From Betaproteobacteria bacterium (lineage in GTDB: Bacteria; Pseudomonadota; Gammaproteobacteria; Burkholderiales; Ga0077523), in contig JAYTTO010000186.1 in the NCBI GenBank assembly GCA_043744975.1, positions 1 through 33,444 on the forward strand: 33,444 bases of DNA, given 5' to 3'. The translations under genes were made by a program, and so were the position numbers. Below, one piece after another: positions 309 to 17,603 of the stretch. The notes below the pieces were generated by a model that saw only the letters and a list, made by a program, of their open reading frames with translations, did no database searches and had not been told where the DNA came from. Each line of letters starts with the position of its first letter. Position 1 is the stretch's first letter.

Positions 309-325
309 CTGACGTTTTCTGTCAG
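309..325. promoter_or_regulatory. palindrome, candidate sigma54-activator (PilR-like) enhancer
   Basis: CTGAC-N7-GTCAG perfect dyad about 215 bp upstream of the sigma54 site; overlaps the HD-GYP stop codon. Confidence 0.35.
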
Positions 326-1986
326 TCGCCGGAATACCCCGGAATTCTCGTCACATCCACCGCGTCGATCTGCTCCGGATCGAGGAACTGTTCGGCATAT
401 CGGAGGTAGACGCGCTGACTCACGAAGATGTCGAAGAGGTCGGGGTCGACGTGGCCGTTGAGCCGAAACTTGCCGAGGATATGGAGCGATTCGGTGAGCG
501 TCTTGCCCTTCTTGTACGGGCGGTCCTTGGCGGTCAGCGCCTCGAAGATGTCGGCGATGCCCATCACCCGCGCCTGGACCGACATCTGGTCGCGCGTGAG
601 TCCGCGCGGATAGCCCTTGCCGTCCATGCGCTCGTGATGGCCGCCGGCGAACTCGGGGACATGACGCAGGTGGCGCGGCCAGGGCAATGCTTCGAGCATC
701 TTGATCGTGACGTCTATGTGGTGGTTGATGATCTGCCGTTCGCCGCTGGTGAGCGTGCCGGCCCGGATGGTGAGGTTCTCGATCTCCTCCGCGGAGAAGA
801 AGTCGACATCCATTCCATCGACATTCCGCCACCGATACTTGAATGAAATCTGGTGGATGCGATCCTGGTCCTCCGGCGACATCGCCTCCGATCCGATATT
901 GCAGTGCCGCACGAAGTCCCGATCGGCATCGATCTCTTCCCCGCGTCGGCGCAGCGATTCGGCAAGCATCGCGGTCTCGGCCCCCGGCTGCCTGATCCCG
1001 GCGAGCCGACGCAGTTGCTCGATCTCGACATCGCGGCGCAGGACCTCGAACCGGGTGTCGATCAGGTGGATGCGGTCGGTGATCGTCTGCAGCTTGGTCG
1101 CCTTGTCGACCACATGGACCGGCGTGGTGACCTTGCCGCAATCGTGCAGCAGGCCGGCGATCTTGAGCTCATAGCGCTCGTTGTCGGTCATGGTCCAGTC
1201 CGCGAGCGGTCCGGACCGGTTCTGGTCGACGGCTTCGGCCAGCAGCATGGTCAGCACCGGCACCCGGTTGCAGTGGCCGCCGGTATAGGGCGACTTGTCG
1301 TCGATGGCCTGGTTGATCAGGTTCACGAACGACTCGAACAGATGCTCGAGCTGCAGGATGAGCAGGCGATTGGTCAGCGCCACGGCGGCCTGCGAAGCGA
1401 GCGACTCGGCCAGGCGCTGGTCGGCCTCGCTGAACGCCACGATCTCGCCGCTGTTGCGGTCGGTGCAATTGATCAGTTGAAGAACCCCGATGATCTCGCC
1501 TTCGTGGTTCTTCATCGGCACGGTCAGGAACGACTTCGAGCGGTAGCCGGTGCGGCTGTCGAACGCCTTGGTCCCGGAGAAATCGAAGCCCTCGGCGGTG
1601 TAGGCATCGGCGATGTTTACCGTGCGGTTGCGCAGCACGGCGTAGGCCGCCACCATCGAGGTGTTCTCGCCACCGTCGGCACTGCGCAGCGGGATCGGGC
1701 CGAACGGCACTTTCGCGCCGGTGGTACCACCCATCGCGATGCCGAGCGACGCAGTCCGGATGATCTCGAAATGCAGCTCGTCCAGGTTTTCGGGATAGCG
1801 GCGGTAGAGCGTCCCGCCGTCCGCGTTGGTGATCTTCTTGGCCGCCACCAGGATGGCCTCGAGCAGGCGGTCGAGGTCCTTTTCCTTGGACAGGGCAATG
1901 CCGACCTCGTTGAGTTCCTCGAGGCGGCGGAACAGATCCGCCGCTGGCGCCGACGTACGGGGCGCAGCCGCTTCGAGCGTGGTCAT
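322..1986 (-). CDS. GAF domain + HD-GYP cyclic dinucleotide phosphodiesterase
   Basis: GAF motif FDSRTGYRSKSFLTVPM...GVLQLIN; YTGGHCNRV, LLHDCGKV, HHERMDGKGYPRGL, DIFEALTAKDRPYK. Confidence 0.92.
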   Translation of the reverse strand: MTTLEAAAPRTSAPAADLFRRLEELNEVGIALSKEKDLDRLLEAILVAAKKITNADGGTLYRRYPENLDELHFEIIRTASLGIAMGGTTGAKVPFGPIPLRSADGGENTSMVAAYAVLRNRTVNIADAYTAEGFDFSGTKAFDSRTGYRSKSFLTVPMKNHEGEIIGVLQLINCTDRNSGEIVAFSEADQRLAESLASQAAVALTNRLLILQLEHLFESFVNLINQAIDDKSPYTGGHCNRVPVLTMLLAEAVDQNRSGPLADWTMTDNERYELKIAGLLHDCGKVTTPVHVVDKATKLQTITDRIHLIDTRFEVLRRDVEIEQLRRLAGIRQPGAETAMLAESLRRRGEEIDADRDFVRHCNIGSEAMSPEDQDRIHQISFKYRWRNVDGMDVDFFSAEEIENLTIRAGTLTSGERQIINHHIDVTIKMLEALPWPRHLRHVPEFAGGHHERMDGKGYPRGLTRDQMSVQARVMGIADIFEALTAKDRPYKKGKTLTESLHILGKFRLNGHVDPDLFDIFVSQRVYLRYAEQFLDPEQIDAVDVTRIPGYSGD

Positions 1987-2017: not shown

Positions 2018-4405
2018 TCACTTGATGCAGACGGCGCGGACCTGCTTCATGTCGGTGACGCCCTGGAGCACCTTCTCGATGCCGTCCTGCTTGAGGGTGC
2101 GCATGCCCTCGGCCAGGGCGGTCGCGACGATCTCGGCCACCCGGGCGTGCTCCTGGATATGCTTCTTGACCATGTCGGAGCCGACCAGCAGCTCGTGCAG
2201 GCCGACCCGGCCCTTGTAGCCGGTGCCGCTGCAGACCTCGCAGCCGACCGGCGAATTCACGGTGATCTGACCGTTCTCGTTGCCGAAGGTCTGCACCCAC
2301 TCGCGGTACACCGCTTCGTAGGCCGCCTTGGGGTCCTTCTTCCATTGCTCGGTGTTGCGCAGCTCCGAGCAGTACTCATCAAGCATGCCCTTCAACTCCT
2401 CTTTGCTGGGAACGTGCGGCGTCTTGCACTTTGCGCACAGCCGCTTGGCCAGGCGCTGGGCCAGCACGCCGAGCAGCGCGTCGGCGAAGTTGAACGGGTC
2501 CATGCCCATGTCGAGCAGGCGGATGACGGATTCCGGCGCGCTGTTGGTGTGCAGGGTGGCGAACACCAGGTGGCCGGTGAGGGAGGCCTCGATGCCGATG
2601 GCGGTGGTCTCCTTGTCGCGCATTTCGCCGACCATGATGATGTCCGGGTCGGCCCGGAGAAACGCCCGCATGGCCGTGGCGAAGTTGAGCCCGGCCTTGG
2701 GGTTCATCTGGACCTGACGCAGGCCTTTCTGGGTGATTTCGACCGGGTCCTCCGCGGTCCAGATCTTGGTTTCCGGGGTGTTGAGGTAGCCCAACACCGA
2801 GTGCAGCGTTGTGGTCTTGCCGGAACCGGTCGGGCCGCAGACGAAGAACAGGCCGTAGGGCTTGGTGACGGTGTCCTTGACGTTCTTGAAGTTGCGCGCC
2901 GACAGGCCCAGCTTCTCGAGCGGGATCGGCTCGCCTGCTGCCAGGATCCGCATCACGATGTCCTCGACGCCGCCGGCCGAGGGAACGGTAGCCACCCGCA
3001 GCTCGATGTCGAGCGGGCCGAACTTGCGGAACTTGATCTTGCCGTCCTGCGGCTTGCGCTTCTCCGAGATGTCGAGATCGCACATGATCTTCAGGCGCGC
3101 GATCAGGGCATTGCGGTACGACGCCGGCACCGAGATGTAGTGCACCAGCGTACCGTCCTTGCGGAACCGCACCTCGGTCTTGGCCTTGCCCGGGAACGGC
3201 TCGATGTGGATGTCGGAGGCGCCCTGGTGGTAGGCGTCGACGATGATCTTGTTGACCAGCTTGACCAACTCGTTGTCCTGCGCCAGCGAGACGTCGTCGG
3301 TGGAAGCGGCGCCACTCTCGTCGGTCTCGTCGTCGAGCTTGCCGAGCAGCTCGCCGATGTCGGCGCCGTCCATCTCGACGCCGTTGCCGCCGAAGAACTG
3401 GTCGAGCGTCGCGCGGAACTCGCGCAGCATGCAGACCCGGTAGCTCACCTTCGAGCGCGGGAATACGTTCGAGACCACCCGCGAGGCACGCAGCCGCTCC
3501 GGGTCGGTAGTGACCACCACGATGCCGTCCTTGTTCTCTTCCAGCGGCACCCAGCCGTTGCTTTCGACGAACTCGCGCTTCAGGTTCTTCAGCAGATCCA
3601 TCGGCTTGATGCGGTCGAGCTTGAGCGGCTCGTAGGGCACGCCGAAGAACCCTGAAAGCGCATCGCCGATCGCTTGCGGCTTGACCTGGAATTCGTCGGT
3701 GAGGACTTCCTCGATGTCGAGGCCTTTGCGGCGCGCCGACCGCGTCGCCAGCTCCATCTCCTCGCCGGACAGGACCGCATTGGCGACCAGCCCGTCGTAC
3801 TTGCCCTTGACGGCGTTCGGCGCCCGCTGCCGCTGCTTGAGCGCGATCGACAGCGTCTCGCACAGATGCGTGACGCCCTCTTCGGCCAGGGTGCCGAAAG
3901 CCTCGTCCGAATGATTGTTGATGATCTGGATGACACCGACCAGTTCGCCGGATCCGACCTCGTTCACCGGCGCGACCAGCATCTGCTTGGTGCGGTAACC
4001 GGTGCGCTTGTCGACTTCTTTGAGGAAGCGCAGCTGCGGGCTCAGGCGCTTCAACTCGGCCTCGTCGTAGACGTCGCGGATGTTGACGAGCTTGCGGGTG
4101 AACGCCACATAGCCCGCGATCGACTGCTCGTTCAGCGGCAGCTTGAGATCCTTGAACGAGGCGAGGCCGGTCTTGACCTTCGAGACAATCGACTGCTTGT
4201 CCTCGGCCAGCGCGTAGATGGTGAGCCGGTCGGCGTCGAACAGCGAGCAGATGTCCTGCGACAGTTCGAGCATGAGTTCATCGATGTTGGCCGTCGCGTG
4301 GATCTTGTTCGTGACCGCCTGCAGCTTGCGCTGGAATTCCAGCCGGCTGCTCATCTCGGCCAGGTTCTGGCTCGACTGGTGCTTTGCTTCGATCACGGAA
4401 CTCAT
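2018..4405 (-). CDS. GAF-fused PilB/GspE-family secretion/pilus ATPase
   Basis: N-terminal GAF (VDKRTGYRTKQMLVAPV); ASDIHIEP, Walker A GPTGSGKTT, Asp box EDPVE, Walker B DPDIIMVGEMRD, His box TGHLVFATLH, Zn cysteines CAKC...CEVC. Confidence 0.93.
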   Translation of the reverse strand: MSSVIEAKHQSSQNLAEMSSRLEFQRKLQAVTNKIHATANIDELMLELSQDICSLFDADRLTIYALAEDKQSIVSKVKTGLASFKDLKLPLNEQSIAGYVAFTRKLVNIRDVYDEAELKRLSPQLRFLKEVDKRTGYRTKQMLVAPVNEVGSGELVGVIQIINNHSDEAFGTLAEEGVTHLCETLSIALKQRQRAPNAVKGKYDGLVANAVLSGEEMELATRSARRKGLDIEEVLTDEFQVKPQAIGDALSGFFGVPYEPLKLDRIKPMDLLKNLKREFVESNGWVPLEENKDGIVVVTTDPERLRASRVVSNVFPRSKVSYRVCMLREFRATLDQFFGGNGVEMDGADIGELLGKLDDETDESGAASTDDVSLAQDNELVKLVNKIIVDAYHQGASDIHIEPFPGKAKTEVRFRKDGTLVHYISVPASYRNALIARLKIMCDLDISEKRKPQDGKIKFRKFGPLDIELRVATVPSAGGVEDIVMRILAAGEPIPLEKLGLSARNFKNVKDTVTKPYGLFFVCGPTGSGKTTTLHSVLGYLNTPETKIWTAEDPVEITQKGLRQVQMNPKAGLNFATAMRAFLRADPDIIMVGEMRDKETTAIGIEASLTGHLVFATLHTNSAPESVIRLLDMGMDPFNFADALLGVLAQRLAKRLCAKCKTPHVPSKEELKGMLDEYCSELRNTEQWKKDPKAAYEAVYREWVQTFGNENGQITVNSPVGCEVCSGTGYKGRVGLHELLVGSDMVKKHIQEHARVAEIVATALAEGMRTLKQDGIEKVLQGVTDMKQVRAVCIK

Positions 4406-4533: not shown

Positions 4534-5298
4534 TCAGAACTTGAACACGTGACCGTTGGCGAGCATGCGGGGATTGAACTGTCCGGCGCACTCTTCGACC
4601 TCGGCCATGGTGAGGGCGCCTTCGCCCGGCTTGAGATGGGTCACGAACACCCGTACCCGCCGCTCCAGCTTGGCCAGTTCGGCCGCCAAGCCGTCCGGCC
4701 AGAGGTGCTTGGACACCAGGGCCAACTCGCGTTCGGCATTGCTGAAAGCCGTCTCGATGATGAGAAAGCGCAGATTGTCGATCTTGTTGACCACGGTCCA
4801 GAGTTCATCGCAGGTGCAGGTATCACCGGTGAACACCAGGCTCGCATCGCCGCTGTCGAGCTGGTAGCCGTTGGCCGGCACCGTATGGCTGGCGGGCAGC
4901 GCGGTGATGCGGCGCCCGCCGAGATCGATGGTTTCTCCCAGCGCCATGGGTTCGAAGCGCAGAAACGGTTCGTTCTCGTTGGGGATCTGGGAGAAATCGG
5001 GCCAGATCTGCCAGTTGAAGATGTGGGCCCGGATGATGGCCAGGGTCGCGGCGGTGGAATGCACCACGATCGGCCGGTTGCGCATGCCGCCCACGGTATC
5101 GACCAGGAACGGCAGCATGGCCAGGTGGTCGAGGTGGCTGTGGGTCAGGAACACGTGATCGATAAGCTGCAGTTCCGCCAGCGTGAGGTCGCCGACGCCG
5201 GTGCCGGCGTCGATGAGCACGTCCTGGTCGAGCAGCATCGAGGTGGTCCGCAGATTGCCCCCGATGCCCCCGCTGCATCCCAACACCCGTATGAGCAT
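4534..5298 (-). CDS. metallo-beta-lactamase-fold 3',5'-cyclic nucleotide phosphodiesterase (class II, CpdP-like)
   Basis: MLIRVLGCSGGIGG start, IDAGTG, THSHLDHL, FTGDT. Start moved to ATG 5298, 2 nt after the cyclase stop. Confidence 0.85.
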   Translation of the reverse strand: MLIRVLGCSGGIGGNLRTTSMLLDQDVLIDAGTGVGDLTLAELQLIDHVFLTHSHLDHLAMLPFLVDTVGGMRNRPIVVHSTAATLAIIRAHIFNWQIWPDFSQIPNENEPFLRFEPMALGETIDLGGRRITALPASHTVPANGYQLDSGDASLVFTGDTCTCDELWTVVNKIDNLRFLIIETAFSNAERELALVSKHLWPDGLAAELAKLERRVRVFVTHLKPGEGALTMAEVEECAGQFNPRMLANGHVFKF

Positions 5299-5300
5299 GG

Positions 5301-7529
5301 CTATTTGCTGTCGAAGTCGTAGACACCGTCCCAGCCGGGCTGCGGCGGGGACGAGCGGAAGTACGCGATGCGCTCCTGGTACGCGCTGTATAGCTTCACG
5401 CCGGGCTCCATGCGCTGCAGGTTGAGCAGCTGCAGCTCGGCCTTGTCCCAATCCTGCGCGCGGTAGAACTTGAGCACTTGCTGGAACAGCTTCAACCGGT
5501 CATGAACATCCTTGCCGACCGCCGACTGCAGACCGATCGGTTCGAAGATCGCGACCGGCGCGTCCTTGCCCTTGACCCGCACGCGGTCGAGTTCGCGGAA
5601 CACGACCTCCGGCACGGCGGACTTGGTGCTTTCGGCGACGATCATGGTCACGCCATAGCGCTTGGTGATGCTCTCCAGCCGCGAGGCGAGATTCACCGCA
5701 TCGCCCATGACAGTGTAGGCCATGCGCAGCTCCGAACCCATGTTGCCGACATTCATGCGCCCACTGTTGACGCCGACGCCGATCTTGAGCGGTGGCCAGC
5801 CCCGGGCCACGAACTCTGGTTCGAGCGCCGCCAATCTGGTCTGCATCTCGAGGCCGGCCAGCACCGCGTGGCGTGCGTGATCGGGGTCGTCGATCGGGGC
5901 GCCCCAGAAGGCCATGATCGCATCGCCCATGTACTTGTCGACCGTACCGCGCTTGCCGTAGATGACCCGCGTCATCGGCGTCAGGTAGGCGTTCATCAGC
6001 TGCGACAGTGCCTTCGGTTCCAGACCTTCCGATATCGTCGTGAAGCTGCGGACATCGGAGAACAGGACCGAGAGTTCGCGGCTCTCGCCTTCCAGCGAAT
6101 ACTGGTCCGGGTTGCGGCTCATCTCCTCGGCGATCTCGGGCGGCACGTACTGGCCGAAGCGATCGGTGATCTTGCGCTTCGCCCGCGACTCGACGAAGTA
6201 GCCGTAGGACATGTTGAGGGCCCACAGGACGGCTGTCAGCAACAGGCCCGACGCCAGCGGCAGCACCAGGTTGCCATTGCTCCACACTGCCAGGTTGAGC
6301 GCGAACACCGCACCAAGCAGGGCGATGGTGGCAACGGTGGCGCGTATCGGCGACAGAAACGGCAACCCGATTGCAAGCGCCAGCCCGATCAGGCTGAGCA
6401 GTACCACTTCGGCGCCCAGCACGTAGGGCGGCTTCTGCTTGATATTGCCGTCGAGCATGCCCACGATCAGGTTGGCGTGGATCTCGACCCCGGGGTAGAG
6501 CGGCGCCACCGGGGTGGACCGCAAGTCCTGCAGCCCCGGGGCGGTGGTGCCGACCAGCACGACGCGGTCCTTGAGGATCTCCGGGGCGACGCGGTCGCGC
6601 AACACGTCGGTGGCCGACACGTATGGGAAGCTGCGCTCCGGACCGCGATACGGCACCAGGGCACGGACCTGCTCGTCGACCGGGACGCGCAGGGGGCCGA
6701 TTTCGAGCCATTCCAGGCCGGGATACCCCTTGGTGAAGACGCTATCGGTCGGATAGCCCGGCTTGACCTGAGGTGACTGCAGCAGCAGCCGCGTCACCGC
6801 CAGCGCCAGCGGTTCGTAGTAGGCCCCCTTGTACTCCGCCAGCATCGGGACGCTGCGATGGACGCCGTCGACATCGGTCGCCGGGGTGAAGTGACCGCCG
6901 CCGGCCGCCGCCGCCTGGAGCTCTGCCAGGTTGCCTCCATAGCCCGGGAAGGTGGTGAACTTGATGCTGCGGCCGCCGAAGGTGCCGGCCGGCAGGACCG
7001 GCTTCGGGATCGCGCCGATCGCCACGCCTTCGGTACCCTGGGGCGCGAGGTTGGTGAAGTAGAAACCGAGGATGACCGGCCGCCCCTTGAGTTGCTCGGC
7101 GAGCAGCCGGTCGTACTCCAGCTTCGGCGCAATGGCATCGAGGGCGGCATGAAACTGGGCATCGGCCCGCAGTTCGCCCTGTTCGAGCCCACGCAGGATG
7201 CCGAGACCCGAGCTCTCGTCGCGTTCGGCGAACACGACGTCGAAACCGAGCACGCTGATGTGGTATTTGTCGAAGAGCTTGCCCACCAGGTCGGCGATGC
7301 GATCCCGGCGCCACGGCCAGCGACCCTCCTCCGCCAAGCTCTTCTCGTCGATGTCGACGATGACCACGCGCGGGTCGACGGTGCGCGGCATGGTGAGCAG
7401 CAGCCGCGCGTCGTAGGCAAAGGCTTCGAGCCGCTCGATGAAGCCGAAGCGCGCAATGCCGGCGGCGTGCACCAGGAAGAAGGCGACGACGGCGAGGCCG
7501 AGGACGATGCGCGCAGCGTGTTTCTTCAA
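5301..7529 (-). CDS. CHASE2-domain class III adenylate cyclase with TPR-like C-terminal tail
   Basis: CHASE2 (IDEKSL...WPWRR, PGVEIHA), 3 TM helices, LFSDVRSFTTISE, DKYMGDAIMAFWGAP, YTVMGDAVNLASRLE; TTG start. Confidence 0.92.
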   Translation of the reverse strand: MKKHAARIVLGLAVVAFFLVHAAGIARFGFIERLEAFAYDARLLLTMPRTVDPRVVIVDIDEKSLAEEGRWPWRRDRIADLVGKLFDKYHISVLGFDVVFAERDESSGLGILRGLEQGELRADAQFHAALDAIAPKLEYDRLLAEQLKGRPVILGFYFTNLAPQGTEGVAIGAIPKPVLPAGTFGGRSIKFTTFPGYGGNLAELQAAAAGGGHFTPATDVDGVHRSVPMLAEYKGAYYEPLALAVTRLLLQSPQVKPGYPTDSVFTKGYPGLEWLEIGPLRVPVDEQVRALVPYRGPERSFPYVSATDVLRDRVAPEILKDRVVLVGTTAPGLQDLRSTPVAPLYPGVEIHANLIVGMLDGNIKQKPPYVLGAEVVLLSLIGLALAIGLPFLSPIRATVATIALLGAVFALNLAVWSNGNLVLPLASGLLLTAVLWALNMSYGYFVESRAKRKITDRFGQYVPPEIAEEMSRNPDQYSLEGESRELSVLFSDVRSFTTISEGLEPKALSQLMNAYLTPMTRVIYGKRGTVDKYMGDAIMAFWGAPIDDPDHARHAVLAGLEMQTRLAALEPEFVARGWPPLKIGVGVNSGRMNVGNMGSELRMAYTVMGDAVNLASRLESITKRYGVTMIVAESTKSAVPEVVFRELDRVRVKGKDAPVAIFEPIGLQSAVGKDVHDRLKLFQQVLKFYRAQDWDKAELQLLNLQRMEPGVKLYSAYQERIAYFRSSPPQPGWDGVYDFDSK

Positions 7530-8419: not shown

Positions 8420-9244
8420 TTACTTGAACCACGACAGGACCTTGCCGAGCCAGGTCTCCGCCGCCGGAAAGTCGCGAGTCACTTTCACCAGAATGACGGA
8501 CACGTTGTCGCGCCCGCCGTTGTCGTTCGCCATCTGCACGAGTTGGTTCGCGGCCAGCGGCAGGTTCGCGCCCATGGCGTTCAGGGTGAGTTCGATGTCC
8601 TCATCCTCGACCATGTCGTTCAACCCGTCCGAGCAGAGCAGGTAGAGGTCGCCCGGCCTGGCGTCGTAGGTATGGATCTCCGCCTCCACTTCGGCCTCGA
8701 TGCCGAGCGCGCGGGTGACCAGGTTCTTGTTCTGCGACCGCCGCGCCGCCTCGCGGGTGATCATGCCGGCATCGATCTGCTCCTGCAGCAGGCTGTGGTC
8801 GCGTGTGATCTGCTCGAGGCGCTCGTCGCGCAGACGGTAAAGGCGCGAATCGCCGATGTGCGCCACCGACAGGCGGTTGTCGCGGAACAGGGTGACCACC
8901 AGCGTCGTGCCCATGCCGGCGTACTGCGGTTGGCTGTTCGCGGACTGATAGATCGACGTGTTGGCCTTGGCGGTGATGCCCTTCAGCAGGCGGATCGCCT
9001 GCAGGTCACCCTCGGCCTGTTCGAGCCCGTGCAGGTTGGTGCGGGCGATCGCCTGGCGCATCTCCGAGGTGATGAGCGCGACGGCGATGCCGCTGGCGAC
9101 CTCGCCCGCGTTGTAGCCGCCCATCCCGTCGGCGAGGACGGCGAGGCCGATCTCGCCGTCGGTAGCGCACGCGTCCTCGTTGTGGGAGCGGACCATGCCG
9201 GTGTGGGTGGCGGTCGAGATTTCCAGGGCCTTGACCAGGTTCAT
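8420..9244 (-). CDS. PP2C/PPM-family Ser/Thr phosphatase (Stp1-like)
   Basis: GMVRSHNED, LADGMGG, MGTT, HIGDSRLY, LCSDGL, GGRDNVS. Confidence 0.95.
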   Translation of the reverse strand: MNLVKALEISTATHTGMVRSHNEDACATDGEIGLAVLADGMGGYNAGEVASGIAVALITSEMRQAIARTNLHGLEQAEGDLQAIRLLKGITAKANTSIYQSANSQPQYAGMGTTLVVTLFRDNRLSVAHIGDSRLYRLRDERLEQITRDHSLLQEQIDAGMITREAARRSQNKNLVTRALGIEAEVEAEIHTYDARPGDLYLLCSDGLNDMVEDEDIELTLNAMGANLPLAANQLVQMANDNGGRDNVSVILVKVTRDFPAAETWLGKVLSWFK

Positions 9245-9247
9245 GGG

Positions 9248-11788
9248 TTACAGGCTGACGTCAATGGTTGAGGACAATTGTGCCGCGCATTCGCGGATCG
9301 CCGCCGCCATTTCCTCGCCGCTACGGAAACGGTCGTCGACGTTCTTCGCCAGCGCACGGGCGATGATGCCGACCAGGCAAGGCGGCAGATCCGGGTTGAC
9401 GCTGAGGATATCGATCGGCGGTTCGTTGGCGATCTTGTACATGAGCTGGGTCATGGTCTCGCCCTGGAACGGCAGGCTGCCGCAGGCCAGCTGATAGAGC
9501 GTGACGCCGAGCGAGAACAGGTCGGACGGGCCGTCGATCTTGCGCCCGGCGAGTTGCTCCGGCGACATGAACGACGGTGTACCCAGAACCATGCCCGTCT
9601 TGGTCTTGGACGAGTCGGTGATGCGGGCGATGCCGAAGTCGGTGACCTTGACCGAGTCGCTGTCCGGGTCGTACATGATGTTCGCCGGCTTGATGTCGCG
9701 ATGCACGACGTTCTGCGCGTGCGCGTACGAAAGCGCGTCGGCCACGCGCGCGGCGATGCTCATGGTCCGGGCGAGCGGCAGCAGCTTGTCGGCCTTGACG
9801 TAGGGCACCAGGTCCTTGCCCTTGAGGAACTCCATCGCGATGTAGGCAAGGTCGTGTTCCTCGCCGGCATCGAAGATCGTCACGATGTTGGGATGATTCA
9901 GGCGCCCGGCCGTCTCCGCCTCGCGGAAGAAGCGCTGCTTGACTTCCTCGAGTTCGTCGGCCTCAAACTCCTGCGACAGCGCCATGGTCTTGATCGCCAC
10001 CACCCGGCCGATCTTCGGATCCTTGCCCAGGTAGACCACGCCCATGGCGCCCTTGCCGAGTTCCTTCTCGACCTGATAGCGCCCCAGCATCGGCTTCTCG
10101 ACCGTCCCGCCCTCGAGGATCATGGTCGACGCGTTGGCCCGGCCGCCGCCGCCGAGGATGACCGTTTCCGACATCTGCTTGGCGCGCGACAGCTTCTGCC
10201 CGAGGTCGCGGAACTTCGGATTGTGGCCGCCCATGTATTCGTACACGGACTGCGCCTTGTTGAACTGGCGCTTGCGTTCGAAATCGAGCGCCAGGTTGTA
10301 GAGGTTGTCCATCAACCCGTCGTTGAGCGGGCACTTGCGGAACTTGTCGAAGGCCATGTCGAGCTGGCCCTGACCCTGAAACGCGAGGCCGAGCATGCGG
10401 TTCGATTCCGCCGACTCGAGATCGGACTGGAGTTTGCCGCGTTCGGTGACCAGGAAGCGCTTGGTGGTCAGCGCCAGATGCCCGATGACCAGCAGGACCA
10501 CGGGCGCCATCAGCGGGATCCAGAGCAACTGCGTGGTCATCAACGCGAAGTGGGCGCCGATCAGCGCAATCGCGAGGGCGATGGTGATGATGGCCGCGGG
10601 GCCCGCCTTCAGCCGCGGCAGCAGCGCGGCGAGATAAGCCGCGATGAGGAGCAGCGCGGCGAACGACACGTACGGCGCCCAGATCGGCTGCACGAAGAAA
10701 TCTTCCTGCAGGATGCTCGAGACGGAGTGCGCGAGGATCAGCACCGGCGACATCGCAGCCGCGATCGGGGTCACAGTGGTGGTGCCGAGGCCCGCGGCGG
10801 TCGGCCCGATCAGGACGATCTTGTCGCGATACTTGTCGGCCGGGATCTTGCCGCTCAGGACGTCGTAGAACGAATCCACCTGGAACGCGGGCTTCGCTTC
10901 GCGATCACGGTAGAAATAGGTAAGCATCTGCAGGCTCGAATCGGTCCGGATCGACAGCTTGCCGAGCTTCACGCCCTCGCCGAACTTGACGGTCACGTCC
11001 TTGGTCTGGAGGTTCAGGCTGCGCGCCGCGATCATCAGCGACAACGACGGAAACATCATGTCGTAGTAGCGGACCACGAGCGGCTCGGACCGGACGCCGC
11101 CGTCGATGTCGATACCGGTGTTGAGGTGTCCGATACCGCTCGCCACGTCGCCGAGGGCCGGGATCGGCATCACGGGATTCAGCACCGAGGTCGGCAGCTC
11201 CGCGCCGGCCGTCGTCGCGGCGAGCGGGAGGACGCTGTTCTTCACATAGGGCGGCAGTTCCCCGTCCGGATTGCCGATCGGTTCGCGGTCGAACTGCTGG
11301 AACACCATCGCCAGCACCACGTTCTTGGCTGCGCCGATGCTGGCGGCGAGCTTGCGGTCGGTATTGAGGCTCTGCTCGGCTTCGCCGAGGGTGACCTCCA
11401 TTTCCGGAAGCTCCTGCTGGGCCGCCGGCGGTGCGGCCTGGAACTGCCCGATCAGCTTGGTGATGTAGATGAGGCCGGGATCGACCTGTGGCTCGGCGAA
11501 GAACACCGTGCTGGCGACGATCCGGGCCTTGGCCTGCGTCAGCAGGTCGATCATCTTGGCGTGGACATCGCGCGGCCAGGGCCAGCGGCCGATGTTGCCG
11601 ATGCTCTGGTCGTCGATGGCGATCACCGCGACACGGTCGCTGGGCGTCTCGCTCGTGGCGCGGACGCCCATGTCGTACGCGACGCGCTCGATGCCCTGGA
11701 TGGCCGACCCGTGCGACGCGATCAACACCGCAAGAGCGATCACGACTGCGACGAACCAGTCCGCCTTCCAGAATCCGAGTTTGCCCAT
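9248..11788 (-). CDS. CHASE2-domain Hanks-type Ser/Thr protein kinase
   Basis: CHASE2 (IDDQSI...WPWPR), 3 TM helices, TPR-like helices, GKGAMGVVY, VAIK, HRDIKPAN, DFG, GTPSFMSPE. Confidence 0.95.
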   Translation of the reverse strand: MGKLGFWKADWFVAVVIALAVLIASHGSAIQGIERVAYDMGVRATSETPSDRVAVIAIDDQSIGNIGRWPWPRDVHAKMIDLLTQAKARIVASTVFFAEPQVDPGLIYITKLIGQFQAAPPAAQQELPEMEVTLGEAEQSLNTDRKLAASIGAAKNVVLAMVFQQFDREPIGNPDGELPPYVKNSVLPLAATTAGAELPTSVLNPVMPIPALGDVASGIGHLNTGIDIDGGVRSEPLVVRYYDMMFPSLSLMIAARSLNLQTKDVTVKFGEGVKLGKLSIRTDSSLQMLTYFYRDREAKPAFQVDSFYDVLSGKIPADKYRDKIVLIGPTAAGLGTTTVTPIAAAMSPVLILAHSVSSILQEDFFVQPIWAPYVSFAALLLIAAYLAALLPRLKAGPAAIITIALAIALIGAHFALMTTQLLWIPLMAPVVLLVIGHLALTTKRFLVTERGKLQSDLESAESNRMLGLAFQGQGQLDMAFDKFRKCPLNDGLMDNLYNLALDFERKRQFNKAQSVYEYMGGHNPKFRDLGQKLSRAKQMSETVILGGGGRANASTMILEGGTVEKPMLGRYQVEKELGKGAMGVVYLGKDPKIGRVVAIKTMALSQEFEADELEEVKQRFFREAETAGRLNHPNIVTIFDAGEEHDLAYIAMEFLKGKDLVPYVKADKLLPLARTMSIAARVADALSYAHAQNVVHRDIKPANIMYDPDSDSVKVTDFGIARITDSSKTKTGMVLGTPSFMSPEQLAGRKIDGPSDLFSLGVTLYQLACGSLPFQGETMTQLMYKIANEPPIDILSVNPDLPPCLVGIIARALAKNVDDRFRSGEEMAAAIRECAAQLSSTIDVSL

Positions 11789-11999: not shown

Positions 12000-12287
12000 T
12001 CACATACCTTCCACGAGCACCACGTTAGATACGGCTGTCCGCAGTCTTAACGCCTTGGCCTCAGCGTAGTCGTCGCCGTGGTACCAGGTGCGCGCCGCTT
12101 CCATGCTCGGGAATTCCAGCATCACGACCCGCTTGGGCGTCCAGACGCCTTCCAGGACCTCGAATGCCCCACCTCGAACGATGAAGCGGCCGCCGGCCGC
12201 GGCGACGATCGGCGCGACCAGCTCCCGGTAGGTCTGGTAGCCGACAGGGTCGGTGACATCGATGTCGACGATCAGATAGGCGGACAT
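12000..12287 (-). CDS. DUF1330 family protein
   Basis: MSAYLIVDIDVTDP...YRELV...GGRFIVRGG...EG...LEFPS...WY, 95 aa; start reassigned to ATG 12287. Confidence 0.88.
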   Translation of the reverse strand: MSAYLIVDIDVTDPVGYQTYRELVAPIVAAAGGRFIVRGGAFEVLEGVWTPKRVVMLEFPSMEAARTWYHGDDYAEAKALRLRTAVSNVVLVEGM

Positions 12288-12404
12288 GGCGCGTTCCGGA
12301 ACGAGGTGACGCCCGGATACTAGCAACCAGCCGCGACTTCGCCAAACCGGCCCCGGCCGGGCGTGATCCGGCGACACGTTCGGGCGGGGACTGCGCCCGG
12401 CCAC

Positions 12405-13607
12405 CTACCCTGCGAAGGCGATCTCCGCGCGGGCCACCAGACCGACCAGGACGCCTTCGAGGGTATCGTGCACCTGCTCCCAGCTCACCTTCTCGGCTGC
12501 CGCTCGGGCCGCAGTGCCGAAGCGGCGCATCCGCAACGGCGTATCCACCAGGTCGGCGGCAAGGCCGACGAAGGCCTCACTGTCCCCCATGTTCGCGAGC
12601 AGCCCGGTCGCCCCGCTGCGGATGTGCTCCCGGCCGGCAGCGTAGTCGTAGGCGACCACCGCGAGACCGCTTGCCATCGCCTCCAGGGTCACGTTGCCGA
12701 ACGTCTCGGTCTGGCTGGCGAACAGGAACACATCGGCCGACGCATAGTGCGCGGCCAGGTCCGCGCCCGTGCGCATGCCGGCGAACACATGTTCCGGATA
12801 CCGGCGGACCAGTGCAGCCCGTTCCGGTCCGTCGCCGACCAGCACCAGGCGCGCCGCGGGGTTCCGGTGGCGCATCGCGGCAAACGCCTCCAGCACCACC
12901 GGCAGGTTCTTCTCCGGCGCCAGACGGCCGACGTAGATCGCTACCGGCTGGTCGCCCACGGCGCCCCAGCTCCGCCGCAGGGCGTCGCTGCGCCGGGCCG
13001 GCGAGAACAGCGCGGTATCGACGCCCCGCGCGACCACCCGGACGTTGCGATAGCCGTTGGCCAGCATGGCCTGCTGCAGTTCTCGCGTCGGGACCATCGT
13101 GACCTGCCCCTTGTTGTGGAACTTCCGCAGGTAGGCCGCGATGGGCTTCTTCAGCCAGCCCACACCGTAGTGGCTGCTGTAGCTGTGGAAGTTGGTGTGG
13201 AACTCCGACGCCGCGGGAATACGCAGGCGATGGGCAGCGGACAAGGCCGACCAGCCCAGCGGACCCTCGGTCACGACCTGGATCACGTCGGGGCGGCGAC
13301 CCTGCCAGAGACGGATCAGCCCCTGGCGCGCGGGCAGGCCCACTCGCAGACTGTCGTAGCGTGGAATCGGCACCCCGGGCTTCAGCACTTCCTCGAGGTT
13401 CCCTTGCACCAGGGCGGCATCCGCCGCGCTCTGACGGGGACGGATCAACTGGACCTGATGGTTCCGCGCCTGTAGCGCAGCGACCATCCGACCCAGGGTC
13501 ATGGCGACGCCGTTGACTTCGGGCGGATAGGTCTCGGTGACCACGGCAATCCGCAGGCTGGGGCGTTGCGCCGGCAGTTGCTGCAACAGGAAAGGGTCCT
13601 CATGCAC
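12405..13607 (-). CDS. GT4-family (GT-B) glycosyltransferase
   Basis: RIAVVTETYPPEVNGVA, VGRLAPEKN, ETFGNVTLEAMASG (EX7E). Start uncertain; GTG 13607 chosen because the ORF-track ATG lies inside the repeat. Confidence 0.88.
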   Translation of the reverse strand: MHEDPFLLQQLPAQRPSLRIAVVTETYPPEVNGVAMTLGRMVAALQARNHQVQLIRPRQSAADAALVQGNLEEVLKPGVPIPRYDSLRVGLPARQGLIRLWQGRRPDVIQVVTEGPLGWSALSAAHRLRIPAASEFHTNFHSYSSHYGVGWLKKPIAAYLRKFHNKGQVTMVPTRELQQAMLANGYRNVRVVARGVDTALFSPARRSDALRRSWGAVGDQPVAIYVGRLAPEKNLPVVLEAFAAMRHRNPAARLVLVGDGPERAALVRRYPEHVFAGMRTGADLAAHYASADVFLFASQTETFGNVTLEAMASGLAVVAYDYAAGREHIRSGATGLLANMGDSEAFVGLAADLVDTPLRMRRFGTAARAAAEKVSWEQVHDTLEGVLVGLVARAEIAFAG

Positions 13608-13700
13608 GGCGCGGACTGTCTCGCCCGCGCGCGAAAACCGCGTGACGATCGTGTGATCCTTTCGTGTCACCGCACGCCCGGCCGCTGCGAACCGCGCCGG

Positions 13701-13821
13701 CCCCATTGGGGGGTGCCGACCGCAGGAAGGCTGGGGGGATCGTCATGCGCAGCGCCGGGCCGCCCCAAGCAAGCAGCCCCCCATTGGGGGGTGCCGACCG
13801 CAGGAAGGCTGGGGGGATCGT
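13701..13821 (+). repeat. REP-like repeat, two tandem units
   Basis: ccccattggggggtgccgaccgcaggaaggctggggggatcgt is identical at 13701 and 13779 (78-bp period). Confidence 0.92.
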
Positions 13822-15397: not shown

Positions 15398-16699
15398 TCA
15401 CGGATGAAACAGGTAGAGCCGGTAGCCGGTGGCGACGATGTCGGCGGTATCGAGTCGCAGCCTGACGCCGAGTTCCGCATTGGCCGCGACGCCGGGGCCG
15501 GCCGATGGGACCGACAGATACTCACCGGGACCGAAGATCTTGCGGGCGACCACCTCCTCGCGAGCGTCGGTCAGCGTGAGTTCGAGCAACGGCATGGCCT
15601 GCTCCACTGGCGCGCGGTTGCGGATCGTGGCGGTGAACGTCACCCGGTTCGGGTGCAACGGATCAAGCGCCTGGAGTTCCGATGCCTCGATGAAGAGGCG
15701 ATCGGTCAGGCGTGGCAGTGGGACCATGCACCGCAGCCAGCGGCAGGCCTGCTCGAGCGGCGTACGGAAGGCAGGTGCAGCCTCGGCGAGGGCGGCGCGC
15801 ATCAGGTAGGTCCCCTGCAGGACCAGGACCACGGATAGCAGGACGATGCCCGCGACCAGCGATGCCGGCATCCGGCCGGGCCGCGGCAGTGCAAACCGGG
15901 GGCTCGCCGGCCCCGCCCCGACAGCCGGAGCGATCGCTGCCTCGGGAACGGTCGCTTCGGCCGGGTCGGCCTCTGCGCGCGCAGGGGGTTCGGTGGCATC
16001 CTCGGGCGGGACCTGGGTCGACCGCGCCGGGGTCGGCGGCCCCTCGATATCGGACCGTGCTTCCAGAGGTTCGGGCGCCTGAACGCCGGTGGGCTGGTCC
16101 GCGGTACCATCGTCGACCACGATCTCGCGCAGTTCCTCCACCGGGAACATCGCGTCCGCGATGTCGGGGTCGTGCCAAGCGGAGGCCGTTTCGCAGTGTG
16201 CCGACAGCGGCAACGAGCCCGGCGCGTCAGCGTCAGCGTCAATGACAGGTTCCGGGCCCGACGGCGCTTCGGCCGAGATCGCTGGCTCCGCCTCCTCGTC
16301 ATCGACCGGCCGGACGATCACCACGGGCGGTTGCGGCGCCATCGTGGCCGCCGGCTCCACAGGCTCCATCGCGGCGATCGGCCCCTCAGGCGGAAAATCG
16401 ACCACCGCGGCGTCGCTCTCCGCCGGGGCAACCTCATCGTCGCCGACGCCGTCGGCGGTTTGTGCCGACGCTTCGCCTTCATGGACGTCGACCGCCGGCG
16501 CCTCCACGGCATCGACCCCATCGCCGCCTTCCGATGGCACCAGAGCAGGAAGCCGCGGATCGCGTGCACTCAGCGTCGCGAAGGCGTCGAACACTTGGTG
16601 GCATACGCCGCACCGGACCTGCCCACCCGCGAGCTGTAGCTGCGCCAGCGTGACCTGGAAGATGATCTCGCAATGCGCGCAGCGGGTGAACATGCTCAT
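15398..16699 (-). CDS. zinc-ribbon + DUF3426 membrane protein
   Basis: MFTRCAHC...GQVRCGVC zinc ribbon, long acidic Pro/Ala linker, one TM helix, C-terminal CRWLRCMVPL...IRNRA...LELTLTD; usual position after prmA. Confidence 0.85.
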   Translation of the reverse strand: MSMFTRCAHCEIIFQVTLAQLQLAGGQVRCGVCHQVFDAFATLSARDPRLPALVPSEGGDGVDAVEAPAVDVHEGEASAQTADGVGDDEVAPAESDAAVVDFPPEGPIAAMEPVEPAATMAPQPPVVIVRPVDDEEAEPAISAEAPSGPEPVIDADADAPGSLPLSAHCETASAWHDPDIADAMFPVEELREIVVDDGTADQPTGVQAPEPLEARSDIEGPPTPARSTQVPPEDATEPPARAEADPAEATVPEAAIAPAVGAGPASPRFALPRPGRMPASLVAGIVLLSVVLVLQGTYLMRAALAEAAPAFRTPLEQACRWLRCMVPLPRLTDRLFIEASELQALDPLHPNRVTFTATIRNRAPVEQAMPLLELTLTDAREEVVARKIFGPGEYLSVPSAGPGVAANAELGVRLRLDTADIVATGYRLYLFHP

Positions 16700-16709
16700 C
16701 GCCGCACTC

Positions 16710-17603
16710 TCACCGCCGGATGCCCCAGAGGCACACCCAGCCTTCGTCCTCGATGACGGGCTCGATCTCGAGCCACGGTTCGTAGGCAGCGGCAACATCC
16801 TGCCATTGTGTGGCAAGGATGCCCGAGAGGACCACCGCGCCGCCCGGTCGGCACCGGCCGCAGATCAATGGCGCCAGCACGCGCAGCGGGTTGGCGAGGA
16901 TGTTCGCGACCACGACATCGGCCGGCGCGAGGGTGGCCGCATCGTCCCCGGCGTCGAGGAACAGGGCCTCGACGCCGTTGCGTTCGGCATTCGCGCGGCT
17001 TGCCGCAACGGCCTGCGGATCGATGTCGACACCGACGACACGGCCGGCACCGAACAGCCGCGCGGCAATCGCGAGCACGCCGGAGCCGCAGCCATAGTCG
17101 ATCACCGTGGCGCCACGGGTGAGGTGGCGGTCGAGCCAGCGCAGGCACAGCCGCGTGGTGGCATGGCTGCCGGTGCCGAAGGCCAGACCGGGATCGAGAC
17201 GAATGGCGATTGCATTCGCGTCCGGCGGCTCGCACCAGGTCGGGACGATCCAGAGCCGCGGGGAAATGGGAATGGGTGCGAACTGGCCCTGCGTGTGCCG
17301 CACCCAGTCGCGCTCCGGCACGGTCTCGATATCGACCGCCGCCACCGGCCGGCCGGTGGATTCGCGGATACCGGCGACAACCGGCCCCAGATCGGCGTCG
17401 CCGGCGAACAGGCCCGCGACCAAATTGTCGTCCCAGGCCGAGTGCGGGTCGCTGCCGGGTTCTCCGAACAGGGGGCGCTCGGCTGCGGTGCCGGCATCGG
17501 CATCGGCCAGGTCGACTGCGAGAGCACCGGCCTCCAGCAACGCATCGGCGATCGCCTCGGCATCGACCGCCGCCACCCGGAGCCGCAGCCGCTGCCAGTC
17601 CAC
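16710..17603 (-). CDS. prmA: ribosomal protein L11 methyltransferase
   Basis: LDPGLAFGTGSHATTRLCL, DYGCGSGVLA, VVANILANPL; GTG start overlapping the accC stop. Confidence 0.95.
   Translation of the reverse strand: MDWQRLRLRVAAVDAEAIADALLEAGALAVDLADADAGTAAERPLFGEPGSDPHSAWDDNLVAGLFAGDADLGPVVAGIRESTGRPVAAVDIETVPERDWVRHTQGQFAPIPISPRLWIVPTWCEPPDANAIAIRLDPGLAFGTGSHATTRLCLRWLDRHLTRGATVIDYGCGSGVLAIAARLFGAGRVVGVDIDPQAVAASRANAERNGVEALFLDAGDDAATLAPADVVVANILANPLRVLAPLICGRCRPGGAVVLSGILATQWQDVAAAYEPWLEIEPVIEDEGWVCLWGIRR

Follow-up and report, generated by a model that had tools for sequence, protein, structure and literature searches.

How the extension motors of type IV pili are switched on is an open question. 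The available sections of a 2024 review on PilB control cover cyclic di-GMP (c-di-GMP), PilZ/FimX, inhibitor peptides and transcriptional control by cyclic AMP (cAMP) through Vfr (PMC11656802), and a word search of the review text returns no occurrence of 'GAF'. The same sections describe PilB and TfpB of Acinetobacter baylyi, which can serve as a precedent for two extension motors working on one pilus machine. For c-di-GMP, the excerpts of Wang et al. 2016 (PMC5013675) define two 24-residue MshEN motifs, from which a strict and a relaxed search form were taken. Here we describe a gene in the window, by which we mean the whole analysed stretch of 33,444 nucleotides (contig JAYTTO010000186.1 of assembly GCA_043744975.1, from a Betaproteobacteria bacterium). 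Its product, which we call the GAF-ATPase, joins a PilB-type motor to a GAF domain of the type that binds cyclic nucleoside monophosphates (cNMPs), and it may be of considerable importance for pilus biology.

We give an even chance to the reading that the GAF-ATPase drives the extension of type IVa pili under the control of cAMP. Its domain make-up, the residues of its pocket, the conservation of its operon and its distribution among genomes are direct observations. If the reading is true, the protein would connect cAMP directly to the pilus machine and would represent a new class of bacterial cAMP effector. A sequence-only reading made earlier on this DNA had already spoken of a new type of effector. 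This can be kept in part. We have found no paper whose title or opening abstract lines deal with a GAF-bearing PilB/GspE ATPase, with the limit that supplementary tables (e.g. those of PMC5013675) may list the architecture; on the other hand, the architecture is widespread and is already named 'GAF domain-containing protein' in databases. The available part of a Ramlibacter genome paper mentions 'three PilB paralogs' and does not give their domains.

Domain architecture and the GAF pocket

Pfam divides the GAF-ATPase into a GAF domain, an MshEN-like N1 domain and a T2SSE core (Table 1). By its sequence, the protein is a PilB/GspE-type assembly ATPase with all catalytic motifs intact, just as the sequence-only reading had stated. 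Besides the strong T2SSE match, all the signatures are readable in the translation, namely GPTGSGKT, EDPVE, DPDIIMVGEMRD, TGHLVFATLHTN and the Cys pairs CAKC ... CEVC, which we take to be the Walker A motif, the Asp box, Walker B with the catalytic Glu, the His box and the tetracysteine motif, respectively. Between the Cys pairs there are about 50 additional residues, an insertion common to a sister clade that is described below. When the full-length protein is searched against the PDB, Thermus PilF and M. xanthus PilB are the best matches (E about 1e-106).

Under TIGR02538, the PilB equivalog model of NCBIfam, the GAF-ATPase scores 491.3 bits, which is below the cut-off of 675.65, and the canonical PilB proteins of relatives score 814–849 bits. 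Since the TIGR02538 alignment begins at amino acid (aa) 206 of the GAF-ATPase, the GAF can be regarded as an addition ahead of the usual N1 (aa ~200–340). The interval 3620–4405, to which the sequence-only reading referred, encodes aa 1–262, the 5' third of the 795-codon open reading frame (ORF), and the peptides quoted there are all present in the translation (VDKRTGYRTKQMLVAPV at aa 131–147, GVIQIINN at 157–164, KYDGLVANAVLSGEEMELA at 202–220 and DIEEVLTDEFQVKPQAIGDAL at 230–250).

When aa 1–202 are searched against the PDB, the top match is the tandem GAF of Anabaena CyaB2 (1YKD, E 8.1e-24, both GAFs), followed by the GAF-HD-GYP protein PmGH (4MCW), PDE10A GAF-B (cAMP), PDE2A GAF-B (cGMP), PDE5 and PDE6. 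We have also obtained an AlphaFold model of aa 1–345, built on a family alignment of 43 rows, with a mean predicted local distance difference test score (pLDDT) of 85.4. Its top Foldseek matches are 4MCW, 1YKD, PDE5/6/2/10 and the GAF of Lcd1 with cAMP bound. That is, by sequence and by predicted fold this GAF is closest to the cNMP-binding GAFs, and its earlier description as cNMP-type holds.

According to the excerpts of PMC4411481, CyaB2 GAF-B contacts cAMP through R291, T293, I308, T309, D356 and N359; the offset from chain to residue numbers was set at 57 via L270, which appears in a primer of that paper. In the 1YKD alignment these contacts fall on R60, T62, V77, K78, D132 and T135 of the GAF-ATPase. 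For R291, T293, I308, D356 and N359, three of the equivalents are identical, one is conservative, and N359 is replaced by Thr as in CyaB2 GAF-A. The pocket is also well kept among the 43 aligned family members: R60 is found in 40, T62 in 41, D132 in all 43 and T135 in 37, the position of V77 is hydrophobic in all 43, and T139 in the TGYRT element is T in 40 and S in 3. In addition, Thr79 of the GAF-ATPase occupies the position of PDE2A D439, which is presumably a cGMP-contacting Asp. In the AlphaFold model the linker between GAF and N1 (aa 195–198) has a pLDDT below 50. It is thus predicted to be flexible, and control would therefore be expected to proceed via docking or dimerisation of the GAF on the hexamer, not via a rigid helix.

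The N1 domain aligns to the GSPII domains of Thermus PilF and to the N-terminus of M. xanthus PilB. Its two helical hairpins keep the MshEN spacing and hydrophobic register, and none of the contact residues R, G, G and Q of each 24-mer is present, so the earlier description of helical repeats spaced like MshEN and lacking the RLG, G and Q residues was accurate. Searched as regular expressions, the strict and relaxed MshEN motifs match neither the window protein nor the family ORFs of related loci (0 of 79) nor the distant members (0 of 18). As positive controls for the same expression, ATPases of related genomes show two motifs each with a spacing of 29 residues (L098 and L100) or one motif (L099). 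By this reading of the sequence the GAF-ATPase is without c-di-GMP motifs.

The sequence-only reading had gone further and proposed that c-di-GMP sensing was swapped for the GAF, and this part is not supported, because canonical PilB is motif-free as well: an MshEN motif is found in neither of two canonical PilB proteins of relatives (0/2). Once the long forms are set aside, canonical PilB is the nearest paralogue clade, and a c-di-GMP-binding ancestor is thus not demonstrated. The consulted text of PMC10333796 gives the PilB proteins of Xanthomonas and P. aeruginosa as not binding c-di-GMP. One MshEN half-motif is kept in the sister clade of ~790 aa, the sole such case among the closest clades.

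Occurrence with PilC, PilB and TfpB

We have scored 120 high-quality genomes, taken evenly across the order, with family-specific models. PilC is present in 100 of them, canonical PilB over the TIGR02538 cut-off in 67, and TfpB (NF053534) in 52, with one at 848 bits, just below the cut-off of 850. The GAF-ATPase is present in 55 genomes (57 matches minus G073 and G116, in which the match is limited to the GAF part) and in 37 of the 83 genera of the order. All 55 carriers possess PilC, and the GAF-ATPase occurs in none of the 20 PilC-less genomes. Moreover, canonical PilB is missing from 33 genomes with PilC, and 32 of these 33 carry the GAF-ATPase; the remaining one, G068, is a 92% complete genome with congeners in which the protein is present. 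TfpB is also missing in 15 of the 32. No genome has PilC and TfpB and at the same time lacks both PilB and the GAF-ATPase, i.e., TfpB is never the lone PilB-like candidate in the sample. The class with PilC and PilB and with neither TfpB nor the GAF-ATPase comprises 24 genomes, including G026 (unpublished). Overall, the association of PilC and the GAF-ATPase across genomes is suggestive and is not a statistical proof.

In 15 sampled genomes with an otherwise complete-looking pilC-pilD system, the GAF-ATPase is the only candidate extension motor, so the annotation 'GspE family' apparently hides a pilus motor. The elimination argument is limited to these 15 genomes without TfpB, which include G019, because the orphan ATPases of ~600 aa in other genomes are TfpB. 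A wider form of the argument, with the GAF-ATPase as the only unpaired ATPase in every genome without pilB beside pilC, was rejected once NCBIfam identified this orphan class as TfpB. G019 is complete in a single contig. Of its two PilB/GspE-type ATPases, one is encoded next to a platform gene of its own and the other is the GAF-ATPase; the genome also has an orphan pilC-pilD-coaE locus and PilT-type ATPases.

In the genome of the window itself (82% complete) and in Pelomicrobium sp., the gene order is CNNM-pilC-pilD-coaE with no pilB beside pilC. The sequence-only reading had raised the question of a canonical pilB-pilC-pilD locus, and of this locus the genome of the window has the pilC-pilD part, on another contig, and no pilB next to it. 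The loci with pilC-pilD-coaE and without pilB lie at G000:C461 (L103:1365–4288), G003:C99 (L101) and G019:C1 (L133). In the genome of the window and in Pelomicrobium, a CNNM/CorC transporter gene stands upstream of pilC in place of pilB. In G034 and G086, which belong to the genus of the window's genome, pilB immediately precedes pilC. Contig C203 of the window's genome was considered as a pilB fragment and rejected, as it carries gspD-gspE. TfpB is encoded in the same genome (G000:C292, L001), and it lies away from the platform gene in all genomes examined.

Among the 39 ATPases of a phylogenetic tree, the GAF-bearing proteins form a clade (8 rows, support 100) that is joined by the sister clade of ~790 aa (support 100) and then by canonical PilB (SH-aLRT 94). 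That is, judged from its sequence, the catalytic domain groups with canonical PilB with moderate support. The members of the sister clade are ~780–795 aa long (G025:C1:471000–475400, L113:426–2813; G082:C1:186500–191000, L126:1568–3907), share 51% identity with the GAF-ATPase in the ATPase part and have the same insertion between the Cys pairs. Their N-terminus of ~200 aa shows no Pfam match and no GAF similarity, and in this clade a motor of the same lineage may be fitted with a different sensor.

The family is large. The best 120 protein clusters are 77–97% identical to the GAF-ATPase, 596 matching stretches were confirmed in the collection of species-representative genomes, and a search with the first 345 residues gives 262 half-identity clusters at E <= 1e-30. 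Among 20 scanned distant members, 15 have GAF, MshEN and T2SSE and 17 have GAF and T2SSE, and forms with two or three GAF regions also exist. One cluster has Nitrospirota record names (Thermodesulfovibrionales, Candidatus Nitrobium versatile). According to record titles, the carriers include iron-oxidisers, nitrifiers and methylotrophs. Cultured carriers can be found among the record titles as well (Chitinimonas viridis, Parachitinimonas caeni, Pelomicrobium sp.), so the idea is directly testable.

The operon, the proposed circuit and competing readings

The GAF-ATPase gene belongs to a tightly spaced seven-gene operon that lies entirely on the minus strand, and from its sequence the gene content looks built to make and to remove cAMP. 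We have surveyed 80 loci by tblastn with the window proteins, with at least 50% query coverage and, for the CHASE2 proteins, also at least 40% identity. The counts in Table 1 refer to loci with enough flank and to genes on the same strand and in the expected place. As they show, the seven-gene operon is conserved in betaproteobacteria.

Table 1. The GAF-ATPase, its domains and the other genes of the operon in the window, with the conservation of each neighbour among related loci.
Feature	Positions	Strand	Evidence	Loci with gene
GAF / GSPII (MshEN-like) N1 / PilB-GspE-type ATPase, 795 aa (P0001)	2018..4405	-	T2SSE E 8e-115; TIGR02538 491 bits	
GAF domain, aa 41-189, CyaB2/PDE-like; pocket R60, T62, V77, D132, T135, T139	3839..4285	-	Pfam GAF (E 3e-7, 31.5 bits, cut-off 22.4); PDB sequence and fold matches	
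N1 (GSPII/MshEN-like) domain, about aa 200-340, without c-di-GMP motifs	3386..3808	-	Pfam MshEN/T2SSE_N, PF05157, aa 254-340 (E 5.2e-11, 42.8 bits vs 23.1); PilF/PilB alignment	
T2SSE ATPase core, aa 375-789, Walker A/B, Asp and His boxes, tetracysteine	2039..3283	-	Pfam T2SSE, PF00437 (E 8e-115, 383.8 bits vs gathering score 24.9); motif reading	
CHASE2 / Ser-Thr protein kinase, 846 aa	9248..11788	-	Pfam	35/52
PP2C Ser/Thr phosphatase, 274 aa	8420..9244	-	Pfam	54/60
FHA-domain protein, 262 aa	7615..8403	-	profile search	51/62
CHASE2 / class III nucleotide cyclase, 742 aa	5301..7529	-	PF00211 E 3.1e-19	47/65
Metallo-beta-lactamase (MBL)-fold phosphodiesterase-like protein, 255 aa from ATG at 5301, HSHLDH motif	4534..5301	-	weak family matches	63/71 (upstream of ATPase)
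GAF-HD-GYP protein, 554 aa (P0002)	322..1986	-	HD_5 E 6.8e-40, GAF E 3e-16	61/69 (downstream of ATPase)

The cyclase aligns best to P. aeruginosa CyaB (3R5G, E 4e-36). A substrate pair of K and T is the mark of adenylate cyclases. The operon cyclase has K (vdKymGD) and T (aYTvmGd) as in CyaB 3R5G, while E and G are found in Synechocystis Cya2 (2W01), which we take to be a guanylate cyclase; by sequence, then, it carries the adenylate-type specificity pair. The MBL gene follows directly, its start overlapping the cyclase stop by one base. NF041851 ('cyclic nucleotide-degrading phosphodiesterase') gives the MBL protein 38.8 bits against a cut-off of 400, with RNase Z models scoring higher. Pfam PDEase_II gives 32.1 bits (cut-off 23.7), covering only profile positions 81–143 of 340, that is, the metal motif, and yeast PDE1 is matched at E 0.002. 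Judging from these matches, the protein is a candidate cNMP phosphodiesterase and no more. The GAF-HD-GYP gene lies 31 bp downstream of the GAF-ATPase, and its HD and HHExxDGxGYP motifs are intact.

Both the cyclase and the Ser/Thr kinase have an N-terminal CHASE2 domain (aa 17–383), so cAMP synthesis and threonine phosphorylation may both respond to a single periplasmic signal. The elements D.RTGYR(T/S)K and GV(I/L)Q(I/L)IN are found in the GAF of the ATPase as well as in that of the HD-GYP protein. The gap between the MBL gene and the ATPase is at least 400 bp, mostly 1.1–1.4 kb, in 29 of the 66 loci with an MBL match. At L040, from a metagenome-assembled genome of Gallionellales, a gene fusing a CAP-type cNMP_binding domain to a rhodanese lies at 8836–9939 between the MBL gene and the ATPase. 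The ORF picked in the gap of L028 matched no family, so the cNMP_binding and rhodanese gene is established for L040 only. Upstream of the operon (12000–13706 and 15398–16816) there are a DUF1330 gene, a GT4 glycosyltransferase gene and a gene for a zinc-ribbon/DUF3426 protein; a GT4 gene flanks the operon in L006 too. The remainder of the window is housekeeping (accC, hemCDXY, argH and others).

Based on the gene content, a circuit can be proposed, in which we infer what ligand the GAF-ATPase binds, in which direction the ligand acts and which platform is the partner. A periplasmic signal would be read by the CHASE2 domains of the adenylate cyclase and the Ser/Thr kinase. The cyclase would produce cAMP, with the MBL phosphodiesterase-like protein as the sink, and cAMP at the GAF of the ATPase would change how active this motor is or how it engages the PilC platform. 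As a parallel output, cAMP may also act at the GAF of the HD-GYP enzyme and lower c-di-GMP, for which the GAF-HD-GYP protein Tlr0485 offers a precedent, since it requires cAMP at its GAF according to the available part of a preprint (bioRxiv 10.1101/2021.11.05.467447). Kinase, PP2C phosphatase and FHA protein would supply a second, phospho-threonine input. The motor would thus be switched post-translationally by cAMP, in contrast to control by c-di-GMP (MshE, some PilB) or transcriptional control by Vfr (Pseudomonas). In its widest form the proposal says that about one third of betaproteobacterial type IVa systems have lost canonical PilB and employ a GAF-PilB as a motor switched directly by the cAMP of the operon's CHASE2 cyclase, under additional kinase/PP2C/FHA control, with the GAF-HD-GYP protein lowering c-di-GMP, possibly on the same cAMP. 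If true, it would amount to a self-contained switch of surface behaviour for which no counterpart has been described. We put this full picture forward only tentatively and consider it rather doubtful as a whole.

Several observations weigh against a cAMP-gated pilus motor, and they are considered here together with the readings that they favour. The NKFDE motif reads N-N-L-A-E in the PDE2A alignment (N163, N164, L173, A174, E175), that is, two of five positions are identical; across the family N163 is kept in 43/43 and E175 in 31/43. In the excerpts of PMC4411481 NKFDE is retained by most characterised cNMP-binding GAFs. The sequence-only reading had called the motif imperfect, and its caution about the ligand stands because of this degeneracy. 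According to the same excerpts, isolated CyaB2 GAF-B also binds cGMP, so the pocket residues alone leave the specificity unfixed, and GAF domains as a whole bind many kinds of ligand. The second-best match, PmGH, has a GAF without known ligand, the linker at aa 195–198 provides no continuous signalling helix, and the cyclase gene is missing from 18 of the 65 loci with enough flank. In the GAF of the HD-GYP enzyme, Gly stands at the position of the adenine-contacting R291 of CyaB2 (ADGGT, compared with ADRLT in the ATPase), and the two GAFs of the operon may therefore read different ligands. The MBL protein shows weak likeness to any named family (RNase Z, 64.9 bits).

These points would suit a pilus extension ATPase whose GAF senses cGMP or another small molecule, or whose GAF only dimerises or docks a protein such as FHA. 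We consider this unlikely, as the adenine-contacting R and T of CyaB2 and the invariant D are kept in 40, 41 and 43 of the 43 members, the K/T pair of the operon cyclase is of the adenylate type, and the operon of L040 contains the inserted CAP-type cNMP-binding gene.

It is likewise improbable, in our judgement, that the protein is regulated by a cNMP and drives another type IV filament or secretion process, or acts as a platform-free signalling ATPase, e.g., in exopolysaccharide control, in which a part for PilB is mentioned in the consulted text of PMC6957770. Neither a platform (T2SSF) gene nor a pilin gene adjoins the GAF-ATPase, and TIGR02538 gives 491 bits where 675.65 is demanded. The GAF-ATPase coexists with canonical PilB in 23 and with TfpB in 32 of its 55 genomes, so the main motor may be another protein. 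The supports of a pilus role have their own limits: the 32 PilB-less genomes fall into 15 family codes and 19 genus codes by hand count and, the compared genomes being relatives, 32/33 does not stand for 32 independent events; the grouping with PilB comes from a quick tree search with a midpoint root and an SH-aLRT of 94; and G019, the strongest case for a PilB role, retains the MBL gene alone beside the ATPase. Against a role apart from the pilus speak the presence of PilC in 55 of 55 carriers and the lack of the GAF-ATPase in all 20 PilC-less genomes, its presence in 32 of the 33 genomes that have PilC and no canonical PilB, the case of G019, where it is the sole unpaired assembly ATPase in a genome that also has an orphan pilC-pilD, and its grouping with canonical PilB in the tree.

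That the helical N1 retains a non-canonical binding of c-di-GMP, with the GAF as an accessory, is very improbable, for although the MshEN helical spacing and hydrophobic pattern are kept, a c-di-GMP phosphodiesterase is encoded in the operon and the sister clade keeps a half-motif, the contact residues R, G, G and Q of each 24-mer are all missing, and even the relaxed expression, which the controls match, has 0 matches in the window protein, the 79 family ORFs and the 18 distant members.

Comparison with known systems

Taken as a cAMP-gated extension motor, the GAF-ATPase is nearest to canonical PilB (TIGR02538; M. xanthus PilB 3JC8, Thermus PilF 6F8L). The two have in common the N1, N2 and C-terminal domains, the catalytic motifs and the tetracysteine site; canonical PilB supplies the best full-length PDB matches, and no other named paralogue clade lies closer in the tree. 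On the other hand, the GAF-ATPase has about 200 further N-terminal residues that form the GAF, about 50 more residues between the Cys pairs and a score of 491 bits, less than 675.65. It also sits in a signalling operon, with pilC-pilD on another contig.

V. cholerae MshE (PMC5013675) has a homologous N1 (PF05157) before the same ATPase, and in both cases the N-terminus of the assembly ATPase is the proposed site of action of a second messenger. Unlike MshE, the GAF-ATPase lacks both 24-residue motifs, and the proposed messenger is cAMP acting via a separate GAF. For the sensor, CyaB2 (1YKD) and Tlr0485 are the closest relatives, with the best sequence and fold matches and with the pocket residues of R-x-T, the hydrophobic position, D and TGYRT kept; in addition, the gene downstream of the GAF-ATPase has the architecture of Tlr0485. 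The differences are in the output, which is predicted to be a hexameric motor ATPase here and is a cyclase or a phosphodiesterase there, and in the sensor itself, with a single GAF against a tandem pair, a degenerate NKFDE and a flexible linker to the next domain.

TfpB of A. baylyi (NF053534; PMC8213720, PMC11656802) resembles the GAF-ATPase as an extra PilB paralogue encoded away from pilC and serving the same pilus machine. In the 120 sampled genomes TfpB occurs in 52, often alongside the GAF-ATPase; in contrast to the latter, it forms a separate clade, has no GAF and is never the lone candidate. A further possible parallel concerns the kinase branch. PpkA, PppA and Fha1 switch the H1 type VI secretion system through threonine phosphorylation, and here too a trio of kinase, PP2C and FHA protein is encoded with a component of a secretion-type machine, with the difference that the kinase of the present operon carries CHASE2.

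Finally, in the Pil-Chp/CyaB/cAMP/Vfr system of P. aeruginosa, as presented in the available sections of PMC11656802, type IV pili are likewise tied to cAMP and to a class III adenylate cyclase of the CyaB kind. The input there is a chemosensory array, compared with CHASE2 and Ser/Thr phosphorylation in the proposed circuit. Furthermore, cAMP acts there via a transcription factor, whereas in the GAF-ATPase the putative receptor domain is fused to the motor itself.

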